This document shows, piece after piece, positions 33,360 to 56,274 of a stretch of 64,000 nt of DNA. Location: assembly GCA_017848335.1 (NCBI GenBank), contig JAGDAX010000014.1, forward strand, positions 4,560 through 68,559. Direction: 5' to 3'. A program made the position numbers and the translations under genes. Every line of letters starts with the position of its first letter. The stretch's first letter is position 1. The notes beneath the pieces are model-generated. The model was not told the DNA's origin. It ran no database searches and saw only the letters and a list, made by a program, of their open reading frames with translations. Source of the stretch: Clostridia bacterium (GTDB lineage Bacteria > Bacillota > Clostridia > UBA1212).

Positions 33360-34793
33360 TCATCTGTCGATGAAAGCCAGATACCCTTTGTACGCCCAGT
33401 AAATGTCGCTCTTCGATGCGAGCTCCAAAGGAGCATGCATTGACCAGAGCGGCACGCCGCAGTCCAAGACCTCGACACCCTTGTCGGCCATGAACTGGGC
33501 GATGGTTCCGCCGCCGCCGGAGTGGATCTTGCCCATTTCGTTGATCTGCCAGGCAACGCCGTTCTCGTCGAAAATGTCTGTGACTTCACGGACAAATTCC
33601 GCGGGGCAGTCGGAGGTGCCGGATTTTCCGCCGTGGCCGGTATACTTCTCGATAGCGATGCCGCCGCCCATAAACGCCGCGTTGCTCTCGTCATAAACGT
33701 CCGCGTAGGAGGGGTCGAAGGCCGCTGTGACGTCCGCTGAAAGCATCTTGGAGGCCGCGAGACATCTGTTGGCGGTGAGCATTACCTCGCCGGGGCCGTA
33801 CAGGGCGGCGATCTCAATGGCAAAAAGCTCAAGTGAGTTGGACCTTGCGCCCGTGTTGCCGACGCTGCCGATCTCTTCCTTGTCGGCGAAATAAGCCACA
33901 GCGGTGCGGGTGGGGACGTTCTTCATGTCAAGAAGCGCCCGAAGCTCGGTGTACGCGCAGACCCTGTCGTCGTGGCCGTAAGCCGCGATCATGCCTCTGT
34001 CGAAGCCGATGTCCGTGGCTTTGGCGGCGGGTGTGATGACAAGCTCGGCGCGCTGGAAGTCCTTCTCGTCAACGCCGTACTTCTCGTTGAAGTAAGCGAG
34101 AATCTGCTGCTTCACGGTGAGCGTCTTGCTGTCCTTGTCTTCCTCGTCGATTTTGCCGGGAATGGAACCGATGATCACGTTAAGGTTCTCCGGGTCAATG
34201 AAGCTCCCCGCCGGCTTCGACATCTGGCCGCCTCCCATATGCGGAAGCAGATCCGAGATCATAAACTTGGGCTCGTCGTCATTTTCACCTATTTTTACGG
34301 TGATCTTCTCGCCGTTCTTCTTGACGATGACGCCGTGAAGAGAGAGCGGAATGGTGGGCCACTGGTACATCTTGATGCCGCCGTAATAGTGAGTGCGGAA
34401 GTAGAGGACGTTGTTCTTTTCGGAGAGGGGATTGGGCTTGAGGTCAAGTCGCGGGCAGTCCACGTGGGCGCCGACCATATTGAACCCGACCTCGGGATTT
34501 TCCTTGCCGAGCACGGCAATAAAAATGCAGCGGTTGCGGTGTACGTAATAGAGCTTCGTCCCGGGAAGCTTCTCTTTAGGAAGCTTCAGATCACGCACCT
34601 CTTCAATGGAAAGGAAGCCGGAGGCACGCAGAAGCTTAATCGCGGAATCGACCGCCTCGCGCTCGGTCTTGCTCTCGTCAAGGAACTTCTTGTAATCCTC
34701 GCAAAGCGCCGTGACCTCGGCCTTCACGGACTCGTCCATGTACTGCCAGGAATTTCTGCGCTTAAATTCCAGTTTCTCATCAAAATCAGCCAT
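33360..34793 (-). CDS. M18-family aminopeptidase (aspartyl aminopeptidase-like)
   Basis: AAGGAGG RBS. GAHVDCPRLDLKP, AYGHDDRVC, ADKEEIGS and SMHAP motifs fit the M18 metallopeptidase pattern. Confidence 0.85.
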   Translation of the reverse strand: MADFDEKLEFKRRNSWQYMDESVKAEVTALCEDYKKFLDESKTEREAVDSAIKLLRASGFLSIEEVRDLKLPKEKLPGTKLYYVHRNRCIFIAVLGKENPEVGFNMVGAHVDCPRLDLKPNPLSEKNNVLYFRTHYYGGIKMYQWPTIPLSLHGVIVKKNGEKITVKIGENDDEPKFMISDLLPHMGGGQMSKPAGSFIDPENLNVIIGSIPGKIDEEDKDSKTLTVKQQILAYFNEKYGVDEKDFQRAELVITPAAKATDIGFDRGMIAAYGHDDRVCAYTELRALLDMKNVPTRTAVAYFADKEEIGSVGNTGARSNSLELFAIEIAALYGPGEVMLTANRCLAASKMLSADVTAAFDPSYADVYDESNAAFMGGGIAIEKYTGHGGKSGTSDCPAEFVREVTDIFDENGVAWQINEMGKIHSGGGGTIAQFMADKGVEVLDCGVPLWSMHAPLELASKSDIYWAYKGYLAFIDR

Positions 34794-35120
34794 AAAAAAT
34801 ACCTCCTTGGAGATTTCAATCAGGAGGTATTATATCAGTTTTGGAAAAATAGTACACTCAAAAATTGAATAGTTTTGGATCGGTTTGGATCGGTTTGGAC
34901 CGATATTTCCGGATAAGTGTTCACGAGATATTCACAGGATTTCTTAGGTCTGACAGCATCATCGGACAAGTGAAATAGTTTGTGCTGTCAGTGATGTATG
35001 TGATTATCACAACGAGGAATATAACAATTGCAGGATGTTGACATATAATATAATGACAAAGAAGTCATTTAAGCATAAAAGACCTAAATGGCTATAATAC
35101 AATGCATGCGGAGGATTATT

Positions 35121-35963
35121 ATGAACGTTAGACTGATTACATTGGATTTACTGTCTGAATTCCAAGCGAAACTTATTGATGACGAAAAAAGCAAATATAC
35201 TATCGAAAAGTATCTGCGCGATGTTAGGCAATTTATGGTCTTTTCTGAACAAAAGAATGTAGACAAGGCACTCGTAGTGTCATACAAGGCTATGTTAAAA
35301 GACAGTTATACAGTTGAAAGCGCTAATTCCATGCTGGCGTCGATAAATGCATTCTTCAGATTTGTCGGCTGGTTGGATATTATCGTAAAACAATACAGAG
35401 TACAGAAAAAAGTTTTTTGTGAAGAAGAGAAGGAGCTCACTCGTGAAGAATATCTTCGCCTTGTTCGAGCGGCAGAACATCAACACAACGAAAGATTGTC
35501 GCTCCTTTTGCAAACAATTTGCAGTACAGGAATTCGAATAAGCGAGCTTCAATACATAACAGTTGAAGCCGTACGAACGGGCAAAGCTATTGTTTCTTGC
35601 AAAAATAAAACAAGAAGTATTTTTATTGTTAAGAAGCTCCAAAACCTACTTATTTCATATTGTGAACGCAATTCAATCAAAACCGGACAGATATTCGTTA
35701 CTAAAACAGGAAACCCAATAAATCGCTCAAATGTGTGGCGCGAAATGAAAGCTGTCTGTAAGGAGGCAGGAGTAAATCCACAGAAAGTATTCCCTCATAA
35801 CCTGCGGCACCTTTTTGCAAGAGTTTTCTACGGTATCGAAAAAGATCTTGCAAAGCTGGCTGATATTATGGGACACAGTAACATAAATACCACCAGAATT
35901 TATATTATTGCTACCGGCATTGAGCATAAGAGAAAGATGGAAAATATGAAACTACTAATCTAA
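35121..35963 (+). CDS. tyrosine-type site-specific recombinase/integrase (280 aa, Xer/Cre-size, no arm-binding domain)
   Basis: GGAGG RBS before MNVRLITL. Catalytic signature in order: R (TGIRISEL), H-x-x-R (HNLRHLF), H (GHSNINTT), Y (TRIYI; Tyr codon 35901-35903). Confidence 0.9.
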   Translation: MNVRLITLDLLSEFQAKLIDDEKSKYTIEKYLRDVRQFMVFSEQKNVDKALVVSYKAMLKDSYTVESANSMLASINAFFRFVGWLDIIVKQYRVQKKVFCEEEKELTREEYLRLVRAAEHQHNERLSLLLQTICSTGIRISELQYITVEAVRTGKAIVSCKNKTRSIFIVKKLQNLLISYCERNSIKTGQIFVTKTGNPINRSNVWREMKAVCKEAGVNPQKVFPHNLRHLFARVFYGIEKDLAKLADIMGHSNINTTRIYIIATGIEHKRKMENMKLLI

Positions 35964-35988
35964 AAATAGGCAAATTAAGCGCTTTGAC

Positions 35989-36010
35989 AACATTATGAAT
36001 ATAATGTTGT
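35989..36010. repeat. left inverted repeat of the switch (ACATTATGAATATAATGTTGTA)
   Basis: Perfect 22-bp reverse complement of 36246-36267. Itself made of 10-bp inverted arms ACAACATTAT/ATAATGTTGT (35986-36009) around an asymmetric GAAT core. Confidence 0.9.
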
Positions 36011-36052
36011 AATGATTGGCTGAAATAGTTTAGATATTCATCAACACCGCGG

Positions 36053-36082
36053 TATTATATCACGCAATACCTTTTCTTCGCA
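36053..36082 (-). promoter_or_regulatory. candidate sigma-A promoter inside the switch, currently facing the recombinase gene
   Basis: On the minus strand: TTGCGA (36082-36077), 18-nt spacer ending in TGA, then TATAAT (36058-36053). This gives a perfect extended -10. Confidence 0.45.
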
Positions 36083-36245
36083 AGTTTTTTTACACGCAAA
36101 TCCATTTTTATGAAAAATGAGTGATGGAGAGAATCTACAGCTGATAATTTAAATCAAAATCAACTGTAAGAAATCTGTCACTAATTTCATTTAAATGGCT
36201 AAAAAGCTTTAAATCAAGATGTCTATAGATGAAGGGCGCAGGGGT

Positions 36246-36267
36246 ATACAACATTATATTCATAATG
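36246..36267. repeat. right inverted repeat of the switch (TACAACATTATATTCATAATGT)
   Basis: Perfect reverse complement of 35989-36010. The central core is ATTC, i.e. opposite orientation to the left site. Confidence 0.9.
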
Positions 36268-36363
36268 TATTCATTTGACTTTCTTACAAGTCTTTTTTAA
36301 AAGCAATTTCAATAAAAAACAGAAAACTACTGATTCCGGTGATTTAAAAAGAAAGGAAAAACT

Positions 36364-38538
36364 ATGAAAACCACCAAGTTTAAGTGCTTTTTTTTCGTTT
36401 TTTTGATGCTCTTGCTTCTCTGTTCAGGTATGACGTTAAGCAACTTTTTTGCTGCTGATGTACCTAACAGAGTTTTTTCTTCTCTGGCCATAGCAGAAGC
36501 AGGAAGCACAATAGAAATACCAATATTAATCGACAATAATACCGGCTTTGCAGGTATGGGCCTTGTGTTTAAGTATGATTCAACAAAAGTCCTGCCATTG
36601 GCCATTAAAACTTCCGGAAGTATTTTTAACGGAGGCATTGAAAATGATATCGGCAGATTTGATGGATTATTTTCAGTGAACTTAAGCGGAATTGATGACG
36701 AAACAGACAACGGACTTTTGTTCACTATCACTTTTCATGTAAATGAATCTGCTGACGGAAGTACCATTATTAACGTCAGTTATGATCAAGAAAACACATT
36801 TGATGAATCGATTGAAGATGTTGCTCTCTTTTGCGAAGATATCAGTTTGACAATTCAAAACGACTTTGGAGATATGCCTGTACTCCGGCTCTCGTCCTCC
36901 CCGGTATACGCAGGGGAAAATGTGAAAATTACAGGTTCATTTGCTAAAGCAGGATTGTTAGATGAAGCTGAAATTATCTTGTCCTTTGATTCCTCTGCTT
37001 TTGAGTATGTCTCAATGAACGCTTTAAATGGTTCAATTGCTATCTCAAATATTATTTTTACGGAAAACAACTTAAGATTTCGAATGACGGTTACATCACC
37101 CATAGCTGGAGATGACTTGTTTGTTTTAACATTACACGCCAACCCGTCTGCCACCGGTAATTATTCTGTAACCGGTTACTCAAAGTTCATGTCAATTATT
37201 GAAGGCAATGTCACTGTTAATTCTCTTGACAGTATTGCAATAATAAGAAGCGATTCAGACATGAGTGCGCTGCAGCACGAATCTCTGGTTATTCCGGTAT
37301 ATCTGGAGAATAATCCCGGACTAATGGGATATAAGCTTACCATTAAGTATAATCCAACGATTATGACGCCTCTTTCTGTTGCAAACAGTGGTGTTTTCAC
37401 AGGAACATTTGATGACAATATAGGAATTCATACAGATTATTTTGACGTTAAATGGTATGGTACTGAACAGGAAACACAAAATGGTAAATTATTTGACATT
37501 ACGTTTAGAATCGATACTGATGAGTATTGTGTTCCTACGGTTTTAATAGAATACTCTCAACCTGATACTTTCAATGAGGAATACCAAGATGTTGCTATGA
37601 ATTGCAGAAGCGTGAAAGTCCTAGTTAATCCGAACCTTAGGCCTGAACTGAAGTTTTCGGGTGCATCTCTGACCTTGCACGATAATATCGCAATCAATTT
37701 TAAGGCTGATAGGAAGTTGTTTACGGATCTGGGGTATTCTGATCCTTTTGTAATATTTACCATGAATGGTGTAGAAACAACAGTTCATAAATATCGAATA
37801 ATTGATGACAAGGTGGTTTTTGATTTCAACAATATTGCTCCTCATAAGCTGAATGACACCGTCTATGTCACATTATATGCCACATACTCAGGCGAGGAAA
37901 CAATAAGCATGACACGCGAATACAGTGTCGCAACATACTGCTACAATATGCTTACTAAATATTCAACAGATGAGTATTCAAAGCTGCGCACATTGCTAGT
38001 GAATCTCTTAAATTATGGCGAATCGTCTCAAATATACGCTAACTACAAAACCGATGCTCTTGTGACAAAGGACTTAACACCGCTTCAAAAGATGTGGGGA
38101 ACGCAAGAATCTCCTTCACTGAAAACAGTCTACAATCCTGCATACACCGTCCTTGATTCACCATCCGTTCAATGGGAAGGCGTAGGCCTGAATTTAACAA
38201 ACTCTGTTGCAATGAGATTCAGGATCACGACAGCCGGCATCGCGGGTTTATCAGTTAAGGTGTCCGGTTCATCGGGTGGCGAATGGATAATCAATAATAC
38301 ATCTTTTGTACCGACTAATGGCGGGTATTATGTTTACTTTAACGGTTTGAATGTTGCTCAACTGAGCGAACCGGTTTATCTTACGGTTTATGATGGCAAC
38401 GTACCTGTCAGCAATACAATATGTTACAGTGTTGAATCATATGCATACGCAAATCAGAATGATTCAGATCAAAAGCTTTCGGATTTAGTTATTTCTATGA
38501 TGAATTACGGGAATTCTGCGTATGCATATGTGCATTGA
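36364..38538 (+). CDS. secreted protein with three cohesin-like modules and a duplicated C-terminal domain
   Basis: Signal peptide (KCFFFVFLMLLLLCSG). Cohesin-like blocks at about nt 36475-36861, 36877-37224 and 37231-37626 (e.g. AGSTIEIPILIDNNTGFAGMGLVFKYD...NGLLFTITFHV). C-terminal ~300 aa is an internal duplication ending ...LLNYGESSQIY / ...MMNYGNSAYAY. Confidence 0.8.
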   Translation: MKTTKFKCFFFVFLMLLLLCSGMTLSNFFAADVPNRVFSSLAIAEAGSTIEIPILIDNNTGFAGMGLVFKYDSTKVLPLAIKTSGSIFNGGIENDIGRFDGLFSVNLSGIDDETDNGLLFTITFHVNESADGSTIINVSYDQENTFDESIEDVALFCEDISLTIQNDFGDMPVLRLSSSPVYAGENVKITGSFAKAGLLDEAEIILSFDSSAFEYVSMNALNGSIAISNIIFTENNLRFRMTVTSPIAGDDLFVLTLHANPSATGNYSVTGYSKFMSIIEGNVTVNSLDSIAIIRSDSDMSALQHESLVIPVYLENNPGLMGYKLTIKYNPTIMTPLSVANSGVFTGTFDDNIGIHTDYFDVKWYGTEQETQNGKLFDITFRIDTDEYCVPTVLIEYSQPDTFNEEYQDVAMNCRSVKVLVNPNLRPELKFSGASLTLHDNIAINFKADRKLFTDLGYSDPFVIFTMNGVETTVHKYRIIDDKVVFDFNNIAPHKLNDTVYVTLYATYSGEETISMTREYSVATYCYNMLTKYSTDEYSKLRTLLVNLLNYGESSQIYANYKTDALVTKDLTPLQKMWGTQESPSLKTVYNPAYTVLDSPSVQWEGVGLNLTNSVAMRFRITTAGIAGLSVKVSGSSGGEWIINNTSFVPTNGGYYVYFNGLNVAQLSEPVYLTVYDGNVPVSNTICYSVESYAYANQNDSDQKLSDLVISMMNYGNSAYAYVH

Positions 38539-38630
38539 CACATATAAAAGAATAAAATGACCCATTAGAACAGTATAAAATTATGCAAGAAATTATGAAT
38601 AAATATGTATTTAGTACGGAGGAAAAGCTT

Positions 38631-41600
38631 ATGAAAAAAACAGCCTTGAGATTGCTGAGCATAGGTTTGGCGATAATAATGCTTGTTTCGGTTTTGCCGC
38701 TGAATGTGTTGGCAGTGAAAACTTCGTTGCAAGAAATCAATCTTTTTAGGGCAGAGATATATGCAAATGGTAAAAAAGCAACAAATACCAAAAGTTTTGT
38801 GGAGTATATTTCAGTCAATCAAGCAAATATATTTTCGAGTGTTGGCAACATATCAACACCTGTTCAAGTGTACTACAAGTTAGCTAAGGAAGACTTTTGG
38901 TATCAGTTTGGATTAAAAGAGTGGGAGGCGATACATGTTTTTGCTTCGCCTTCACATATTACTGAAACGGGTGAAGTGACCATTTACGAGTATTATGAAG
39001 CCATTTTGATGGACTTGATTAACAGAAATACTAATGGTACAAACGAAACACTTAAAATGGTCGATGGTGTGGCGAGTGGGGTTTACAACTCGATTTATAG
39101 TTCTTATACGAAAACATTTACGACTTTGATGCAACAAGTTTTTGCTGAGAATCCCGATATTACTGTTGAAACAATTACAACAGCAAAAACATCAAAAACA
39201 GTTAAAAATTTGTTATCAAAAGTAACAGATGAAAACTCTTACAAAAAGACCTCTGCTCTTCTCGACTTGTTAGAAACCTGTGGAAATGTTAGAGATGCTA
39301 TAAAAACCGTTTCTGCGTACAGTGCGCTATGTGATTATTTTGACGGGACAAAAGAGGTTTTGTCGTTTATTGCTAACGATCAAAACTCAACAAATCCAGT
39401 TCAATTAAAGATAGCAGCGAATAACATATTGTCCTGCTTTGATGAATCTGTTCAATCCTCGTTGAAATCGCTGGAAATTGGCGGGATAGAAATGGCAATC
39501 AAGACTGCCGGTCAAGTTATCGACAACAGTTATTCAAAAGCAATAAGTTCTAATCCGTATTTACTTGCTGCATATTTGACGGCAAAAACTGGACGGTTTA
39601 TTTTTAATGAGTTATGTAGTGTAGATAAACAAGCTGCAACGTATTATCAAATTGAGGCCAATGCCATATTTGAAAACGAATTAAAGCGTGTAGTTGATGA
39701 GTTTAGAAGTCGTTTCAATGCAAGTAAAACCGAGAAAGATGCGAAAGCATATCTTCGTGCCGTACAGATGTTCGAAGATAATATTCTTTTAGGTTGTGAT
39801 TATGTTTACGAATTTGCCTCGACAAATATCAATACAGTTTGGAATACTATTTTTGGATTAAATAAAAAGCACCAAGAGGCACTTAATGAAATCATATCTC
39901 TCAAGGGGTTGTATCAGATGGCTTTTGAAGACTATGAGAATTCTCACGTTTCAAAAGCATGGAGACAAACGTATGGTATTACTGCTGAGGAAGAGGATAT
40001 TATTAATGAAACAAACGATAATGGAACTGCTCTTTCTGGAGAAAAGGTGTTCGCTGATAAAATTGCAGTCCTAAAAAAGGAATACCCACAAGGAAAATAC
40101 TGGAATCAATATAATGGATTGGATTCGAATGGTGTAGCAAAAGCGGGAGATATAATTTGCAGTGGGACTGCGTCTTATGATAGTAAACAATGTATTTCTC
40201 ATGGGTACTGTGCATACAAAGGAAAATCATGTAGTTGTAAGTGCGGATACTTCCACGGTTGGCAATGCTTTGGATTTGCAAATCTGATGGCTTATAAAGT
40301 GTTTGGATCATATGCAACTAATGGGTATACTGCAAGCGATGTCAATTCAAGCAAGGGCTGGGTGTATTATAAATCTGTCTCGTCGTATTACGTTGGCGAT
40401 GTTGTAAGAATTAATAATAATCACTCAATCTTCATTACAAAAATAATAGGCGCTGGGATACAATATGTGGATTGCAATAATTCCGGTCCGTGCAAAATCA
40501 ACTGGAATAACACTATCACCGCCGAGAACTTAGCAAAGAAAACGACTTTTGTTGTCAGAAACACTAATTCATCGCTATCATCACTAAGTGGTTCAAGTGT
40601 TAACGGAAGTACGGTTAGTAACACTGTTTCTTATAAAATATCAAGCGCAAAAGCAACATCAATCACCAATAAATCTGCAACTATTTCTGTTGGTTTAAAT
40701 CAAAAGGCATCTGTTTCAAAGTGGACTTATTTTGTAAGCACAAACAAAAATGCGCTGGTTAATCTGGACGGAACAAGCGGAAGCACACATAAATCGACCA
40801 ATACTGTTACATGCCGTCGTATTCTTGATTACCAAGCCAACCCGAAATATGAGAAATCTGATACTTTCACAATTTCAAAACATCAGGGAGAAGATTTGAA
40901 ACCGAATACCACTTATTACTATAAAGTAACCGTATCTATAAATGGTAAGTGGTATTCAACAGGCGTTCAAAGCTTCAAAACCACCAATTATCTGCCGGAC
41001 GCTGCAAGCCTTCGTGTTTCGCGGGATAGCCAGGTGGTTGGTGTAGGCGATTCAATCACGCTTCTTTGGGATTCCACAAAGAATACAGATACCTACAGCA
41101 TTGAAGTTAAAGACGTTAATGGTATAACTGTTCAAAAGAAGACGAATATTAAAGGATTAACATACACTTTAGATCCTATTTCTGAAAGCGGCGCATATAC
41201 CGCTACAATCACCTCCGTTAATGCGGTAGGTGAGAAGTTCGGAACGAGTGCAGAATTCACCGTAGAGCCCAATCGTCTTGTGCGGTTTTATGACACGATT
41301 TCGGATGAGATGATTTACGAAGAATCTGTTCCATATGGGCACAGTGCGAATGCCCCGAAAGCGCCTACTCATTATGGACATACGTTCAGTCAATGGAACA
41401 GAAGTTATGAAAAAATCAAAGATAGCGGTGAAGGCGATGAACACATCATTACTGTTAATACGGTTTATGATCTGAACACGTATACCGTTAGATTCATTGA
41501 TGCATTTACCAATGAAATAATCAGTTCGCAATCGGTCAAGTATAAAAAATCCGCTGTTGCGCCGGTATCATTGCCGGAGCACAAAGGTTTTGAGTTTATC

Positions 41601-44600
41601 TCATGGGACAAAGGATATTCAAGTATTGAAAAGGATACGGATATCTATACTGTCTATCAGTGGGAGGATCCGGATCATCTTGCTATTCTAACAATTGATG
41701 GTGTAACACGCACAATTCCGAAAGAAAACAGCGAAGAAAATGTTGGATACGATGTTTCGGTAACGATCAGCAATTCTGCCGATAGAATTATCAGCGGAAG
41801 AGTGGTTGCCGTATTAAAATCTGCGGAGGGGACTATTCTTTCGCAGTCCGAATCTGCCGCTTTCGCGGTGGATAAGGCGCCGATGGATGCATCGGGTTCG
41901 ATTATCGGAACGACGGATAGGCAAGTAACCTTTACAGTCTTGTATGATGATTTTGCACCTCAAATCGAATTGTACCTGATCAACGACTATGACAAACTGG
42001 GGCAATTGGCACCTATGGTCAGCACTGATATTGATAATACCGGTGTATGGTCCGGATTGATTCGATTTGAAGGTGATGAACCTCCGGTTCAGTCTGACCC
42101 CGAAAAAGGTATCACGGTAGCTCTTGAAGGTCCCTTCAATGAGACAATCAAGTATTATCGTTATCGTATCCTTGAAAAGTCATATGAAACTTCTGCCTCC
42201 ACAGCCGGATACACGCAGTCAGGATATACAAAGGTGAACGCGCAGCAAAAGAGCGTAGATTATGTTGTCTCTTGGCCTTCCGGGTTTTTGAAGACAAATT
42301 CACTTTATACGCAGTATAACAAACAGCCCGTTACGGCTTCTGAAACAGCAACGCAGATTATAGAGGTCAGTTCGCCGACAACCAAGGGATATATTTATTA
42401 TCATTGGTGCATGGGGACGTATGCAAACGGTCCGATTAACCGTGGAATCAACGGCTCTAAGACTTCAACTTACAAGCAGTTCCATGCGTTCTATACCACC
42501 TCCGCAGTTTCATTTGATTCATCGGCGAAGGCTTATAAAAAATCAGTTTCCGGAACTTGTAAGGATACTTATTGGTGGTATGGCCTCACTCCGGATAAAA
42601 GCGGTAACATAATCGTTAAAACTCAGAATTATACGGTATATGACAAACTATACAATTACTATTCCGAGTATTCTGAATGGATTCCATATGTCGGTGAATG
42701 TCCTCTGACAAATGGGGCGTTGGTTGATGGTGATGCCAACAAAACTTATGAGGTGGAAACAAAGACAGAGACCAATGATTATTATTGCTATAAGTATTGC
42801 ATAAATAATACTCCTGAAGAACCTGTGTTTTCTGATGATGATCCCAGGGTTGTTAGTATCTCTGGTACGATTAGTTCGAAATTTGCAGCAAAGACAGCGA
42901 CCGTATGGATTTACAAGTATTCTCAGGCATCGGATTACACAACTGAATATGTTGGAAACACCATCGTTGGATGCGAAGGTCAATTATCTATTGAGCGTGC
43001 CGTGTTAAGAGAGGCTCCTTCTGTGCAAAGCGGTGACTATACTATTGTTGTATCTGTGCCGGGACAGGAACAAGCACTTCATCTTGGAACAATCAAAGCA
43101 CCAAAAGCAAAATATACAGTTGTTTTTGAAGATTATTTCGGCAATGTTATTTCTTCGCAAGAAATAACAGAAGGAGACTCAGCATTTGTTCCCGATTCTT
43201 CGCTTACTTGCGCTCCGGCCGGGTACCGTTTTGCCCGTTGGTCAGAATCTGTTGTCAACGTTAGGGGCAATTTAACTGTAAAGCCGGAGTTTGAAAAGAT
43301 GACCTTTGTCGTTGCATTTGTTGATTGGAATGATCAAAGCGTTATTTTGAACGAAAATATTGAATATGGATCAGAGTTGGTTTCTATAAGCTCACCTGCG
43401 GAAATCGAGGGTTATGATACTGAATGGGTCGTCCAAATCGACGATCAGTATTTAACTATCGAGGAGTTTACAGATAGCGGATACACAGTGACAGGTAATA
43501 TGGTAGTTACAACAAGAAATACGCCTAAGGATTACTCTGTCATCTTCCTGGATGCCGATCCCGAAGTTGTTCTTGAAAACAAACTACAAAATATTGATAG
43601 CGATAAGCTTTCGCCAATTGGTATTTCAGAGAACACAAATAATATTGAGGTTTTGGCAAACACCACTGTAACTTATGGTATCGGTATTGATTATTCCGCC
43701 GTTATTGAACTGGAAGAAAACGAAGATTACGTTTTCATGGGATGGATCAATGCTGCAACAGGGGAAGCATTAGAGTCTGCTGATATAACCGAATCGGTTG
43801 TTCTATACCCACGTTATGTCTTTGCTGAGACAGTTGAAATACCCGTTGCATCTATGGATAACGGAGAATATTCAGAAACGATTGAAGTTGAATTAACTCA
43901 GGAATTTGAAAGCGCTTCCATTTGGTATACATTGGATGGAACTGATCCGAAGATATCTAACACAGCAATGGAGTATACAGGAACGATAATAATCGATCAT
44001 TCGTGTGTTCTTCGGTATTATTCGAGCGCTCTCGGATTCAATGATAGTGATGAAGGATATAGGGCTTTTGCTGTCAACCTTTCTGATGATAATCGTTATC
44101 ATGTTGTTACGGTGTATGCAGTTGCAAATGTTGGACCCCTGGTGAAAGGGGAACCCTCGATTGGTCTGGTAAAAGAAGGAATTACATTACCAAACAGTTT
44201 GTTCTCCGATGCATTTGAAGGATATGCTTTTAATGGGGTTTATAAAGATTTTGACTGTAGCGAATTATTTGTTCCCGAGGCAGAAGAAATTACAGACTCC
44301 TTAGCTTTCTATGCACATTATGAGCCAATCGAGTATACTGTACATTTCTATGGGTTTGATGGAAGCTCACTTTCAACACAGACAGTTTCTTACGGAAACA
44401 AAGCTGAAGCGCCCATTGCTCCGGAAGTTGACGGATATGTGCTTGCAGGATGGGATGGTGATTACTCGTTTGTTGACGACGATCTTGACGTTTTCGCTCG
44501 ATATATTACTCCTGACGAATACGCGACAATCAGCCTTGATAAAAAGGCTATCACATTGAATGTTGGCGCATCTTACGCAAACCTTCAGACGACAATTACC

Positions 44601-45203
44601 CCGACCATCCATTCCAATTACGAGATCGAATGGTATTCCTCAAATGACGATATTGCCTCCGTAGATGAAAACGGTGTGATTACAGCGCTCTCGATTGGAT
44701 TCACAACGATTACAGCCAAACTTCCTTACACTGGTGAAACTGCAGAAGTTACTGTTAAAGTTGCTTACGATTTGGATCGTGAAATTGTCCTTTTACAGGG
44801 TGCCACAATGGGATTTGACGTGAATCGCAATCTTCGATTAACTCCAAATAATGATCTGACTGTAGATGGGGTTTTGAGATGGTTTGAAAATGCAAATCTT
44901 TCTATTTGTAAAGCTGATGGAACTGAACTTTCAGGAGATGATTTGGTCGGGACCGGATGTGTCGTCAGGCTTATGAATGATGGCGATTTAATCGACTTTT
45001 CGATAATCATTTTGACCGGTGATTACAATGGAGATGGCAAAATCAACAACAGAGACGTGGTAATGCTGAACCAGCTGATTATGGATAAACGCGATGCGGA
45101 TATCTGGCAAATAATGGCTCTTGATGTGAACGGTGACGGATATATAAATAATCGTGACAGCGCGATGCTGGCCAGATACCTTGTAGGTAAAGAAACTCTT
45201 TAG
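38631..45203 (+). CDS. giant secreted multidomain protein (2,190 aa): helical N-domain, Cys/His papain-like module, FN3, Listeria-Bacteroides repeats, BIG2, C-terminal dockerin
   Basis: GGAGGA RBS before MKKTALRLLSIGLAIIMLV (signal peptide). GWQCFGFA...NNNHSIFI module. At least five Y-x-V-x-F...G-(Y/F)-x-F-x-x-W repeats. BIG2-like block ISLDKKAITLNVG...ITAKL. Dockerin GDYNGDGKINNRD / DVNGDGYINNRD at 45018-45200. Confidence 0.9.
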   Translation: MKKTALRLLSIGLAIIMLVSVLPLNVLAVKTSLQEINLFRAEIYANGKKATNTKSFVEYISVNQANIFSSVGNISTPVQVYYKLAKEDFWYQFGLKEWEAIHVFASPSHITETGEVTIYEYYEAILMDLINRNTNGTNETLKMVDGVASGVYNSIYSSYTKTFTTLMQQVFAENPDITVETITTAKTSKTVKNLLSKVTDENSYKKTSALLDLLETCGNVRDAIKTVSAYSALCDYFDGTKEVLSFIANDQNSTNPVQLKIAANNILSCFDESVQSSLKSLEIGGIEMAIKTAGQVIDNSYSKAISSNPYLLAAYLTAKTGRFIFNELCSVDKQAATYYQIEANAIFENELKRVVDEFRSRFNASKTEKDAKAYLRAVQMFEDNILLGCDYVYEFASTNINTVWNTIFGLNKKHQEALNEIISLKGLYQMAFEDYENSHVSKAWRQTYGITAEEEDIINETNDNGTALSGEKVFADKIAVLKKEYPQGKYWNQYNGLDSNGVAKAGDIICSGTASYDSKQCISHGYCAYKGKSCSCKCGYFHGWQCFGFANLMAYKVFGSYATNGYTASDVNSSKGWVYYKSVSSYYVGDVVRINNNHSIFITKIIGAGIQYVDCNNSGPCKINWNNTITAENLAKKTTFVVRNTNSSLSSLSGSSVNGSTVSNTVSYKISSAKATSITNKSATISVGLNQKASVSKWTYFVSTNKNALVNLDGTSGSTHKSTNTVTCRRILDYQANPKYEKSDTFTISKHQGEDLKPNTTYYYKVTVSINGKWYSTGVQSFKTTNYLPDAASLRVSRDSQVVGVGDSITLLWDSTKNTDTYSIEVKDVNGITVQKKTNIKGLTYTLDPISESGAYTATITSVNAVGEKFGTSAEFTVEPNRLVRFYDTISDEMIYEESVPYGHSANAPKAPTHYGHTFSQWNRSYEKIKDSGEGDEHIITVNTVYDLNTYTVRFIDAFTNEIISSQSVKYKKSAVAPVSLPEHKGFEFISWDKGYSSIEKDTDIYTVYQWEDPDHLAILTIDGVTRTIPKENSEENVGYDVSVTISNSADRIISGRVVAVLKSAEGTILSQSESAAFAVDKAPMDASGSIIGTTDRQVTFTVLYDDFAPQIELYLINDYDKLGQLAPMVSTDIDNTGVWSGLIRFEGDEPPVQSDPEKGITVALEGPFNETIKYYRYRILEKSYETSASTAGYTQSGYTKVNAQQKSVDYVVSWPSGFLKTNSLYTQYNKQPVTASETATQIIEVSSPTTKGYIYYHWCMGTYANGPINRGINGSKTSTYKQFHAFYTTSAVSFDSSAKAYKKSVSGTCKDTYWWYGLTPDKSGNIIVKTQNYTVYDKLYNYYSEYSEWIPYVGECPLTNGALVDGDANKTYEVETKTETNDYYCYKYCINNTPEEPVFSDDDPRVVSISGTISSKFAAKTATVWIYKYSQASDYTTEYVGNTIVGCEGQLSIERAVLREAPSVQSGDYTIVVSVPGQEQALHLGTIKAPKAKYTVVFEDYFGNVISSQEITEGDSAFVPDSSLTCAPAGYRFARWSESVVNVRGNLTVKPEFEKMTFVVAFVDWNDQSVILNENIEYGSELVSISSPAEIEGYDTEWVVQIDDQYLTIEEFTDSGYTVTGNMVVTTRNTPKDYSVIFLDADPEVVLENKLQNIDSDKLSPIGISENTNNIEVLANTTVTYGIGIDYSAVIELEENEDYVFMGWINAATGEALESADITESVVLYPRYVFAETVEIPVASMDNGEYSETIEVELTQEFESASIWYTLDGTDPKISNTAMEYTGTIIIDHSCVLRYYSSALGFNDSDEGYRAFAVNLSDDNRYHVVTVYAVANVGPLVKGEPSIGLVKEGITLPNSLFSDAFEGYAFNGVYKDFDCSELFVPEAEEITDSLAFYAHYEPIEYTVHFYGFDGSSLSTQTVSYGNKAEAPIAPEVDGYVLAGWDGDYSFVDDDLDVFARYITPDEYATISLDKKAITLNVGASYANLQTTITPTIHSNYEIEWYSSNDDIASVDENGVITALSIGFTTITAKLPYTGETAEVTVKVAYDLDREIVLLQGATMGFDVNRNLRLTPNNDLTVDGVLRWFENANLSICKADGTELSGDDLVGTGCVVRLMNDGDLIDFSIIILTGDYNGDGKINNRDVVMLNQLIMDKRDADIWQIMALDVNGDGYINNRDSAMLARYLVGKETL

Positions 45204-55428: not shown

Positions 55429-56274
55429 CTATTCCAGCCCGGAGTCGCTGAGCGGCCCGTACTTATTGTTGGGCGTGTCGACGTACGTCAGCTTCGCGCA
55501 GACTGAAACGTCGTACCATATCTCATCGTCAAGATACGCCCGCTGATAAGGGCATTCCGCGTTCACGAACCACACGCCCGAATTGCACATTGCCGCGGTG
55601 GAGCCGTATTCCGCCGCGAGAATATATTCCCCCGCGGGCAGACTTTCTGCTTCCAGCGGCACCAGTACGCCGTCCTGCCAGTCCTCGAGGAACGCGGTCG
55701 CCACAGGCTTCCCGGTCATTGTGGAATCGTAATCGCCCGCCCATTTGTACAGGCTGTATTCAACGTTGTATCCTTCTTTGGCGGTCCAGGTAGGCGACTC
55801 AAAGCCGACGGAAGAAAACGCTGCCGTGGCACGGAACTGCATCGCGATAATATGCCCCGTTCCGCAATAAGCCTCCTTGGCCCCGTTTTCGTAAAGCGCG
55901 GCAGTGCTTTTCCTGCCTTCCGCTTTGATGCCGCCGGAATAATCGGTCTCCTCCGTCCCCGAAGGCTTCCCGGTGGGAGCTGTGCCCTCTGTCCCGGATC
56001 CTCCTGTCTTGATTTCCTCAGTCCCGGTTTCTCCGGTATCGCCGCCCGGAGTCCCTGAAGGGTCGCTGCTGGGCACGGGAGAGGTGGTCCTCCTTGGCGC
56101 GTCAGGGCTGCCTTCTTCCGCACCGGCGGTGTCAAAAGCGGGAACAGGGGAGGCGTCGGAATGCATTTTCCCCGGATCTGTGTTACCGGTCTGCCCGGTG
56201 CACCCGCCAATGCCTGCCGCCGCGATAATGACCGCCAGAAGCGCCGTTATTGTTACCGTAAATTTTGTCCTCAT
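55429..56274 (-). CDS. hypothetical lipoprotein (281 aa)
   Basis: GGAGG RBS. Lipobox AAGIGGC. Gly/Thr/Pro/Glu linker. The C-terminal domain is paralogous to the N-terminal domain of the 855-aa neighbour. Confidence 0.8.
   Translation of the reverse strand: MRTKFTVTITALLAVIIAAAGIGGCTGQTGNTDPGKMHSDASPVPAFDTAGAEEGSPDAPRRTTSPVPSSDPSGTPGGDTGETGTEEIKTGGSGTEGTAPTGKPSGTEETDYSGGIKAEGRKSTAALYENGAKEAYCGTGHIIAMQFRATAAFSSVGFESPTWTAKEGYNVEYSLYKWAGDYDSTMTGKPVATAFLEDWQDGVLVPLEAESLPAGEYILAAEYGSTAAMCNSGVWFVNAECPYQRAYLDDEIWYDVSVCAKLTYVDTPNNKYGPLSDSGLE

Follow-up and report, generated by a model that had tools for sequence, protein, structure and literature searches.

The locus considered here lies in a window of 64,000 nt, the whole stretch of DNA that was analysed, and consists of a recombinase gene, a short segment bounded by inverted repeats and, beyond that, two large genes here called cargo, all three genes being on the plus strand. 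The first (35121-35963) encodes a Xer-like tyrosine recombinase of 280 aa (Pfam Phage_integrase, 9e-26). Its best NCBIfam matches are the XerA/XerD/XerC models, at scores under their equivalog cut-offs, and the relationship to FimB/FimE-type invertase models is remote (E about 1e-6 to 1e-7). The recombinase is intact, with the R (GIRISEL), HxxR (HNLRH), H (GHSN) and Y (TRIY) motifs all present on alignment to PDB 4a8e. A promoter-like site is found at 35021-35049, and the gene reads toward the repeats, its stop codon being 21 nt from the left one, with the intervening gap, AAATAGGCAAATTAAGCGCTT, occupying 35964-35984.

The left repeat, IRL (35985-36011), and the right repeat, IRR (36247-36273), are 27 nt each and 93% complementary, and both have the 9-6-9 organization of a core site with an asymmetric centre. 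In IRL the outer arm, ACAACATTA (35987-35995), is followed by the centre TGAATA (35996-36001) and the inner arm, TAATGTTGT (36002-36010); in IRR the inner arm, again ACAACATTA (36248-36256), is followed by the centre TATTCA (36257-36262) and the outer arm, TAATGTATT (36263-36271). These are Xer/lox-like recombinase core sites. As the two 6-nt centres are reverse complements of each other, recombination between the sites is expected to yield inversion rather than deletion, and the unit flipped by the adjacent recombinase would run between the 6-nt overlaps 35996-36001 and 36257-36262. The interior of the segment (36012-36246) is 235 bp.

Cargo gene 1 (36364-38538) encodes a secreted cohesin protein of 724 aa (Pfam Cohesin, 6e-16), and cargo gene 2 (38583-45203) a giant of 2,206 aa with dockerin, Big_2 and Listeria-Bacteroides-repeat domains. 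A promoter scan of the 44 nt between them gave no promoter-like site, so the two are probably co-transcribed. The whole is part of a 10.5-kb AT-rich island, with a GC content of about 32-45% per 500-nt window vs 54-62% in the flanks. The island is foreign to the genus, no orthologous switch having been found when 40 related genomes were searched at the DNA level with the 400-bp intergenic region.

Inversion in natural samples

Exact matches of the recombinase protein were present at four places in public assemblies, giving same-species contigs L003-L006. Three of these (L003-L005) do not differ from the window anywhere in the switch, and so have the segment in the same orientation, below argued to be OFF. 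The fourth, L006 (ENA ERZ28653711), stops 81 nt past the recombinase stop codon and contains a flipped left junction, ...ATAATGTTGTA|TACCCCTGCGCCCTTC..., its end reading ...ATAATGTTGTA|TACCCCTGCGCCCTTCATCTATAGACATCTTGA, i.e. the left repeat followed by the part of the interior next to IRR in the window, in reverse complement. The junction is exactly that predicted for inversion, with the flipped part recovered for this species amounting to 33 nt. The segment inverts in natural samples.

Two further contigs were retrieved by exact look-up of the variant of the cargo protein encoded by L003, the corresponding look-up of the window's own 724-aa cargo protein having returned no record. One (L075), from the same sample as L006, begins exactly at IRR, and the other (L074), from a different sample, begins 33 nt within the segment. 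Contig breaks at the switch are the expected outcome of assembly from a mixture of the two orientations, and several contigs of the more distant relatives considered below end at the first repeat. A scan of JGI metagenome contigs for the exact promoter 30-mer gave 0 matches. The first-pass annotation had proposed the segment to be invertible, a proposal now borne out by the L006 junction and by oppositely oriented, near-identical segments in relatives.

A predicted promoter within the invertible segment

The same annotation had pointed to a near-consensus promoter on the minus strand, TTGCGA, then 18 nt ending in TGA, then TATAAT. It is present, with the coordinates first given for it (36053-36082) being one base low. 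By direct reading the -35 hexamer TTGCGA is at 36083-36078, aligning with the conserved TTGNNN of the relatives, and the 18-nt spacer ending in TGA is at 36077-36060. The TG (36062-36061) and TATAAT (36059-36054) together make a perfect extended -10, TGATATAAT (36062-36054). From this geometry transcription is predicted to start at a G, 36047, 7 nt past the -10 and 36 nt away from the inner boundary of IRL. The placing of the promoter inside the invertible segment holds, as it sits between the two inverted repeats, and so does the direction earlier assigned to it, leftward over the left repeat toward the 3′ end of the recombinase gene, whose stop codon ends at 35963.

In a promoter scan of 34800-36500, TTGCGA/TATAAT was among the two best sites and was the sole one with TG before the -10. 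The 64-kb window has a single copy of the exact pattern vs 0.01 expected from shuffles. An AT-rich island favours promoter-like matches, and because of this the chance test was redone locally. Dinucleotide shuffles of the 235-bp segment gave an expectation of 0.0025 for TTGNNN-(13-16 nt)-TGNTATAAT; for the 10.5-kb island it was 0.07, and the promoter is the single instance there. That the motif is a fortuitous match in AT-rich DNA gains something from the base composition and from the no more than slight enrichment of simple promoter-like sites in the scanned region (10 found vs 6.3 expected), yet it is scarcely credible given the local probability of about 0.0025 and the homology, in position as well as sequence, to promoters in 45 related segments. 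TGNTATAAT itself is present in 4 copies in the 64 kb, counting both strands, vs 0.76 expected. Two of the three other copies are close upstream of gene starts, one 36 nt from the minus-strand start at 34793 of an M18 aminopeptidase gene and the other 33 nt from a minus-strand ORF starting at 56274, so that the organism appears to use the motif as a real promoter element.

Within and around the promoter, three TTGCG(T/A)(G/A) heptamers on the minus strand (36061-36099) are exactly 16 nt apart and overlap its upstream region, -35 and spacer. The heptamer has only 23 copies in the whole window, both strands included, and no such triplet was found in the aligned relatives or in the second switch of the same genome (L084, below). 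The triplet is possibly a regulator site or the trace of a tandem duplication.

A separate observation concerns the M18 aminopeptidase gene, which has its own TGATATAAT (34837-34829, minus strand). In a 10-bp hairpin (34798-34831, minus strand, -12.8 kcal/mol), with TTTTATGG after it, the AGGAGG of the gene is paired to an anti-Shine-Dalgarno sequence. Transcription initiated at this gene's own promoter would begin close to where the 5′ arm finishes, so that the RNA would escape the hairpin, and read-through from the island would be either terminated or left with a masked ribosome-binding site.

The family of related switches

A recombinase scan with one genome per species yielded 64 related loci (L007-L070), with 52-85% identity, mostly in metagenome-assembled genomes from the guts of ruminants and other mammals. 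A common layout is shared by 53 of them: recombinase gene, 0-100 nt, repeat, segment of 170-290 bp, inverted repeat and then a gene. The consensus of their repeats is ACAACATAAy-N5/6-rTTATGTTGT, and where these relatives have ACATAAT the window sites read ACATTAT. The counts over 54 loci that follow are for these 53 plus the window.

TTGNNN-(14-16 nt)-TGNTANNNT is present in 46 of the 54 segments vs a mean of 2.9, and a maximum of 8, in 200 dinucleotide shuffles. The -10 is always 16-47 nt from the repeat that the promoter fires across (42 nt in the window), and there is one promoter per segment, near one end, except for L030 and L038 which have two. It faces the recombinase gene in 31 segments, the window's included, and the cargo in 13, with 2 having promoters facing out at both ends. 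Most of the 8 segments lacking the full motif have TTGCAA- or TTGATT-17-TATAAT with no TG. On alignment, the window promoter matches those of the relatives column by column, even to the A-tract upstream of the -35; its spacer is 18 nt vs 17 nt in almost all of them. In five pairs of relatives (L051/L056, L037/L040, L054/L040, L060/L052 and L060/L044) the segments are 97-100% identical only after one of the two has been reverse-complemented. On sequence grounds, the putative promoter is what the invertible segments of this family carry as their conserved payload.

The two segments with promoters at both ends, each of 289 bp, are of a different character. Inversion in L030 and L038, where both promoters are outward and of extended -10 type, would swap a TAAAAT promoter for a TAAATT one and not be an on/off switch. 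Elsewhere, comparison of L037 and L054 with L040 reveals that the inner half-sites (ATGTATT vs ATGTTGT) travel with the segment between orientation variants, which places strand exchange within the central 5-6 nt of the sites.

The cargo of the family is very diverse. It includes many proteins with SipW/TasA-type signal peptides, other secreted proteins, small membrane proteins, a recurrent 210-aa TetR-like regulator, an NRPS-condensation-like protein and SPFH-like proteins. Of 46 genomes of the order, 18 have related recombinase genes, at 1-2 copies each, and this patchy distribution, taken with the diversity of the cargo, fits a portable cassette. A scan of viral contigs for the recombinase gave no relatives. 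A second switch in the genome from which the window derives is on contig C21 (L084:1059-2199), where a recombinase 55% identical to the first is followed, beginning about 4 nt past its stop codon, by a repeat, the sites being of the type ACAACAAA-TACTGA. Its promoter, TTGACA-18-TATAAT, faces its recombinase gene, and the contig ends at the far repeat.

Predicted terminators and insulation of the recombinase gene

In the 54 loci, the gap from the recombinase stop codon to the left repeat was scanned for a hairpin followed by a T-run. A terminator is predicted there on the minus strand in 49 of the 54, and on the plus strand in only 2. Read on the plus strand, it appears as an A-run, often overlapping the TAA stop codon, and then a hairpin, e.g. 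CCGATACCnnnnGGTATCGG or, in one relative, CCGATACC...GGTATCGG. An example is at L007:4841-4870, the equivalent position in the window being 35964-35984. The hairpins often have G-U pairs that form only in the RNA of the opposite strand, as in GGTCGGCGAAAGTCGGTC. Such a terminator would, to judge from its sequence, stop transcripts leaving the switch in the direction of the recombinase gene. Its presence in so many loci provides independent support for the segment emitting transcription that way, and means that the family is mostly insulated against antisense transcription of the recombinase gene.

The minus-strand terminator hairpin is absent from the 21-nt gap of the window, as it is from those of L012, L032, L025 and L057, and the C21 switch resembles the window switch in having no insulating gap terminator. 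A scan for minus-strand terminators leftward from the window switch gave none that was acceptable, just weak candidates inside the recombinase gene. There are hints that the gap terminator was lost secondarily in the window. The sequence of its gap can be read, as TAAAAATAGGCAAAT, as resembling the relatives' TAAAAA-hairpin-GGCAAAT minus the hairpin, with the match being of 7 nt only.

A second feature common among the relatives is a conserved long palindrome in the middle of the segment, GCATGACAAAAAGCCTTTCC...GGAAAGGCTCTTTTGTCATGC, flanked by an A-run and a T-run. It is present in about 40 of the 54 loci, about 60 nt upstream of the promoter in relatives such as L014 and L068, and is absent from the window segment. 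As a predicted bidirectional intrinsic terminator it would stop read-through arriving from the recombinase gene whichever way round the segment is, and would make expression of the relatives' cargo depend on the invertible promoter alone. The order of the elements in the module is then recombinase gene, strand-specific terminator, recombination site, bidirectional terminator, promoter and second recombination site. With the full layout found in 53 related loci, and with a second switch in the same genome, the module is both widespread and portable. Its layout, recurrent and engineered-looking, is useful for annotating metagenome invertons, and may serve as a design template for synthetic switches.

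Probable orientation-dependent expression of the cargo operon

In the mechanism proposed, a promoter predicted to be of sigma-A type lies inside a tyrosine-recombinase inverton and, in the sequenced orientation, would fire leftward and away from the cargo, leaving the operon at 36364-45203 OFF or only leaky. When inversion is modelled, the promoter comes to lie at 36175-36204 with the start at about 36211, from where it would transcribe the operon with a leader of 153 nt to the ATG at 36364, the putative ON state. A leader of roughly 150 nt had been foreseen. Folds of the ON-state leader and of the OFF-state transcript showed only the hairpin of the repeat itself, with no terminator and no trap for the ribosome-binding site. 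A hairpin with GACTT..AAGTC and T6 (36276-36298) was considered as a leader terminator and set aside, its stem being of 5 bp with 2 G-C pairs and below the thresholds of both scans.

Past the right repeat the first-pass annotation had found a single fixed candidate promoter, which it considered weak. This plus-strand site, TTGACT-17-TAAAAG, is indeed there at 36275-36303 (TTGACT 36275-36280; TAAAAG 36298-36303), one base off from where it had been placed. The promoter scans did not list it because the last base of its -10 is not T, and nothing better precedes the ATG at 36364, with no other promoter-like site detected by those scans on the plus strand between there and the right repeat. Without a good fixed promoter ahead of the cargo, expression that depends on orientation is the interpretation to be preferred. 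The earlier proposal of an OFF state, with cargo expression dependent on orientation, thus agrees with a promoter that faces away from the cargo, with no fixed promoter of comparable quality and with the finding of family promoters in both orientations. Confidence is high that the promoter is the invertible element, and that the sequenced state is OFF for the cohesin/dockerin operon.

OFF need not be silent. Neither strand of the window's segment has a predicted terminator, and there is none past the recombinase gene on the plus strand, so read-through from the recombinase promoter could make OFF leaky, unless it is stopped by Rho or by collision arising from the convergent promoter. Such read-through is the starting point for a different type of switch, operating as cwpV does in Clostridioides difficile (PMC5386303), in which the segment would itself be promoterless, the recombinase-gene promoter would be the fixed source of transcription, and inversion would create or remove a terminator in the leader. 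The terminator-free recombinase gene does make read-through into the switch likely. However, no intrinsic terminator is predicted for the segment on either of its strands, the internal terminator of the relatives is bidirectional and would block in both orientations, and the conserved, position-fixed, outward extended -10 promoter is left unexplained. A switch of this type is very improbable here.

With the invertible promoter as the preferred reading, the switch probably toggles a horizontally acquired operon for a cohesin and a giant dockerin surface protein in an uncultured gut Clostridia bacterium, and the promoter supplies the last piece of its mechanism as a phase-variation switch.

Possible transcription toward the recombinase gene

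The fate of transcripts initiated in the sequenced orientation is a separate matter. As the window has no gap terminator, antisense read-in is physically plausible. The predicted OFF-state transcript probably enters the recombinase gene from the 3′ end as antisense RNA, arriving at the stop codon at about +85, and continues to wherever Rho or chance stops it. Its consequences there can be viewed in more than one way.

On one view, in line with the first-pass suggestion that the OFF-state transcript could modulate recombinase expression, transcription from the OFF-state promoter, antisense and convergent to the recombinase gene, would lower recombinase output, so that the OFF state would tend to lock and the rate of switching would depend on orientation, in functional analogy to fimE and its orientational control. 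No minus-strand intrinsic terminator is predicted between about 36047 and the recombinase coding region, and the C21 switch is likewise terminator-free with its promoter facing its recombinase gene. The recombinase gene itself is without a plus-strand terminator, which makes overlap of its mRNA with the OFF transcript unavoidable. Its position immediately 5′ of the switch is that of fimE with respect to fimS (PMC9993118, PMC5386303). Set against these points, 49 of the 54 family loci stop this transcript ahead of the recombinase gene; the ancestral design is one of insulation, and the absence of the terminator from the window may be simple loss; untranslated antisense RNA may be ended early by Rho; and fimE control itself uses a Rho-dependent terminator acting on sense mRNA, not antisense RNA (PMC9993118, PMC5386303). 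Antisense control of the recombinase is accordingly regarded as conceivable and rather doubtful. A more specific form of it, in which the family's gap terminator was lost at both switches of the genome and the OFF promoter represses the recombinase convergently, thereby stabilizing OFF, is unlikely. If true, it would represent orientation-dependent feedback on an invertase by transcriptional interference or antisense RNA, a functional parallel to fimE control by a different mechanism, with the insulated relatives as natural controls. The uninsulated copy in the window is a convenient test case for an antisense effect on invertase expression.

Slightly favoured is that the promoter is real and that its OFF-state transcript is a by-product, terminated by Rho or degraded and of no regulatory consequence, with the recombinase expressed constitutively and at a low level from 35021-35049. 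Insulation by a terminator in most relatives suggests that the transcript has no selected function. Consistent with this, the antisense region holds no plausible ORF, a 66-codon one (35927-35727) having been dismissed as chance for want of a ribosome-binding site, and 35800-36500 gave no Rfam match at E <= 1. The point to the contrary is that two independent switches in the genome are both without the terminator, perhaps because of selection and not decay.

Comparison with known systems

Promoter invertons operated by tyrosine recombinases are classical, fimS and Bacteroides surface loci being examples, and they have been widely catalogued. The closest counterpart in a survey of hCom2, a defined human gut community, is inverton group 139, of which 32 of the 33 members are from Clostridia, with repeats of 14-26 nt, interiors of about 206-228 bp and tight linkage to an adjacent tyrosine recombinase, invertase group 35 (PMC11892184). 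The present family is probably that of inverton group 139 and invertase group 35, the likening being by geometry and not by repeat motif. Shared features are a short tyrosine recombinase gene alongside, Clostridia hosts, surface-associated genes nearby and occurrence in both orientations. The window copy differs in being without both of the terminators found in its relatives and in having ACATTAT sites.

With the fimS switch of E. coli, where the tyrosine recombinases FimB and FimE invert a segment of roughly 300 bp carrying the promoter of a surface-structure operon, the parallels are several. The inverted repeats here are core sites, both orientations occur in nature and, at the level of sequence, an outward promoter with an extended -10 is 42 nt from IRL. 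As in fimS, a recombinase gene is immediately upstream and reads into the switch, here ending 21 nt before IRL with no plus-strand terminator; in fimS, recombinase expression can depend on orientation (PMC9993118). However, fimS has 9-bp repeats, two dedicated recombinases and a need for host factors, the Rho-dependent terminator relevant to fimE control is within fimS and acts on sense mRNA (PMC9993118, PMC5386303), and the window recombinase is a Xer-like protein of 280 aa.

The RecV switches of C. difficile, cwpV and flgB, resemble that considered here in the host being one of the Clostridia, in the use of a tyrosine recombinase and in inversion taking place upstream of a large cell-surface gene. 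Promoter activity is absent from the cwpV and flg switches, which operate at a stage later than transcription initiation (PMC5386303), whereas here a promoter is conserved. RecV is encoded away from the several switches that it serves, and in the present family each switch has its own adjacent recombinase. The invertible promoters of Bacteroides (Mpi/Tsr and those in PhaseFinder-type catalogues) are similar in that promoter invertons control genes for the surface architecture of gut bacteria. They differ in the Bacteroidota promoter consensus, in their repeat motifs and, for Mpi, in a single global serine recombinase serving many sites. From these comparisons, the switch is a further member of a known, if thinly characterized, kind of promoter inverton in gut Clostridia.
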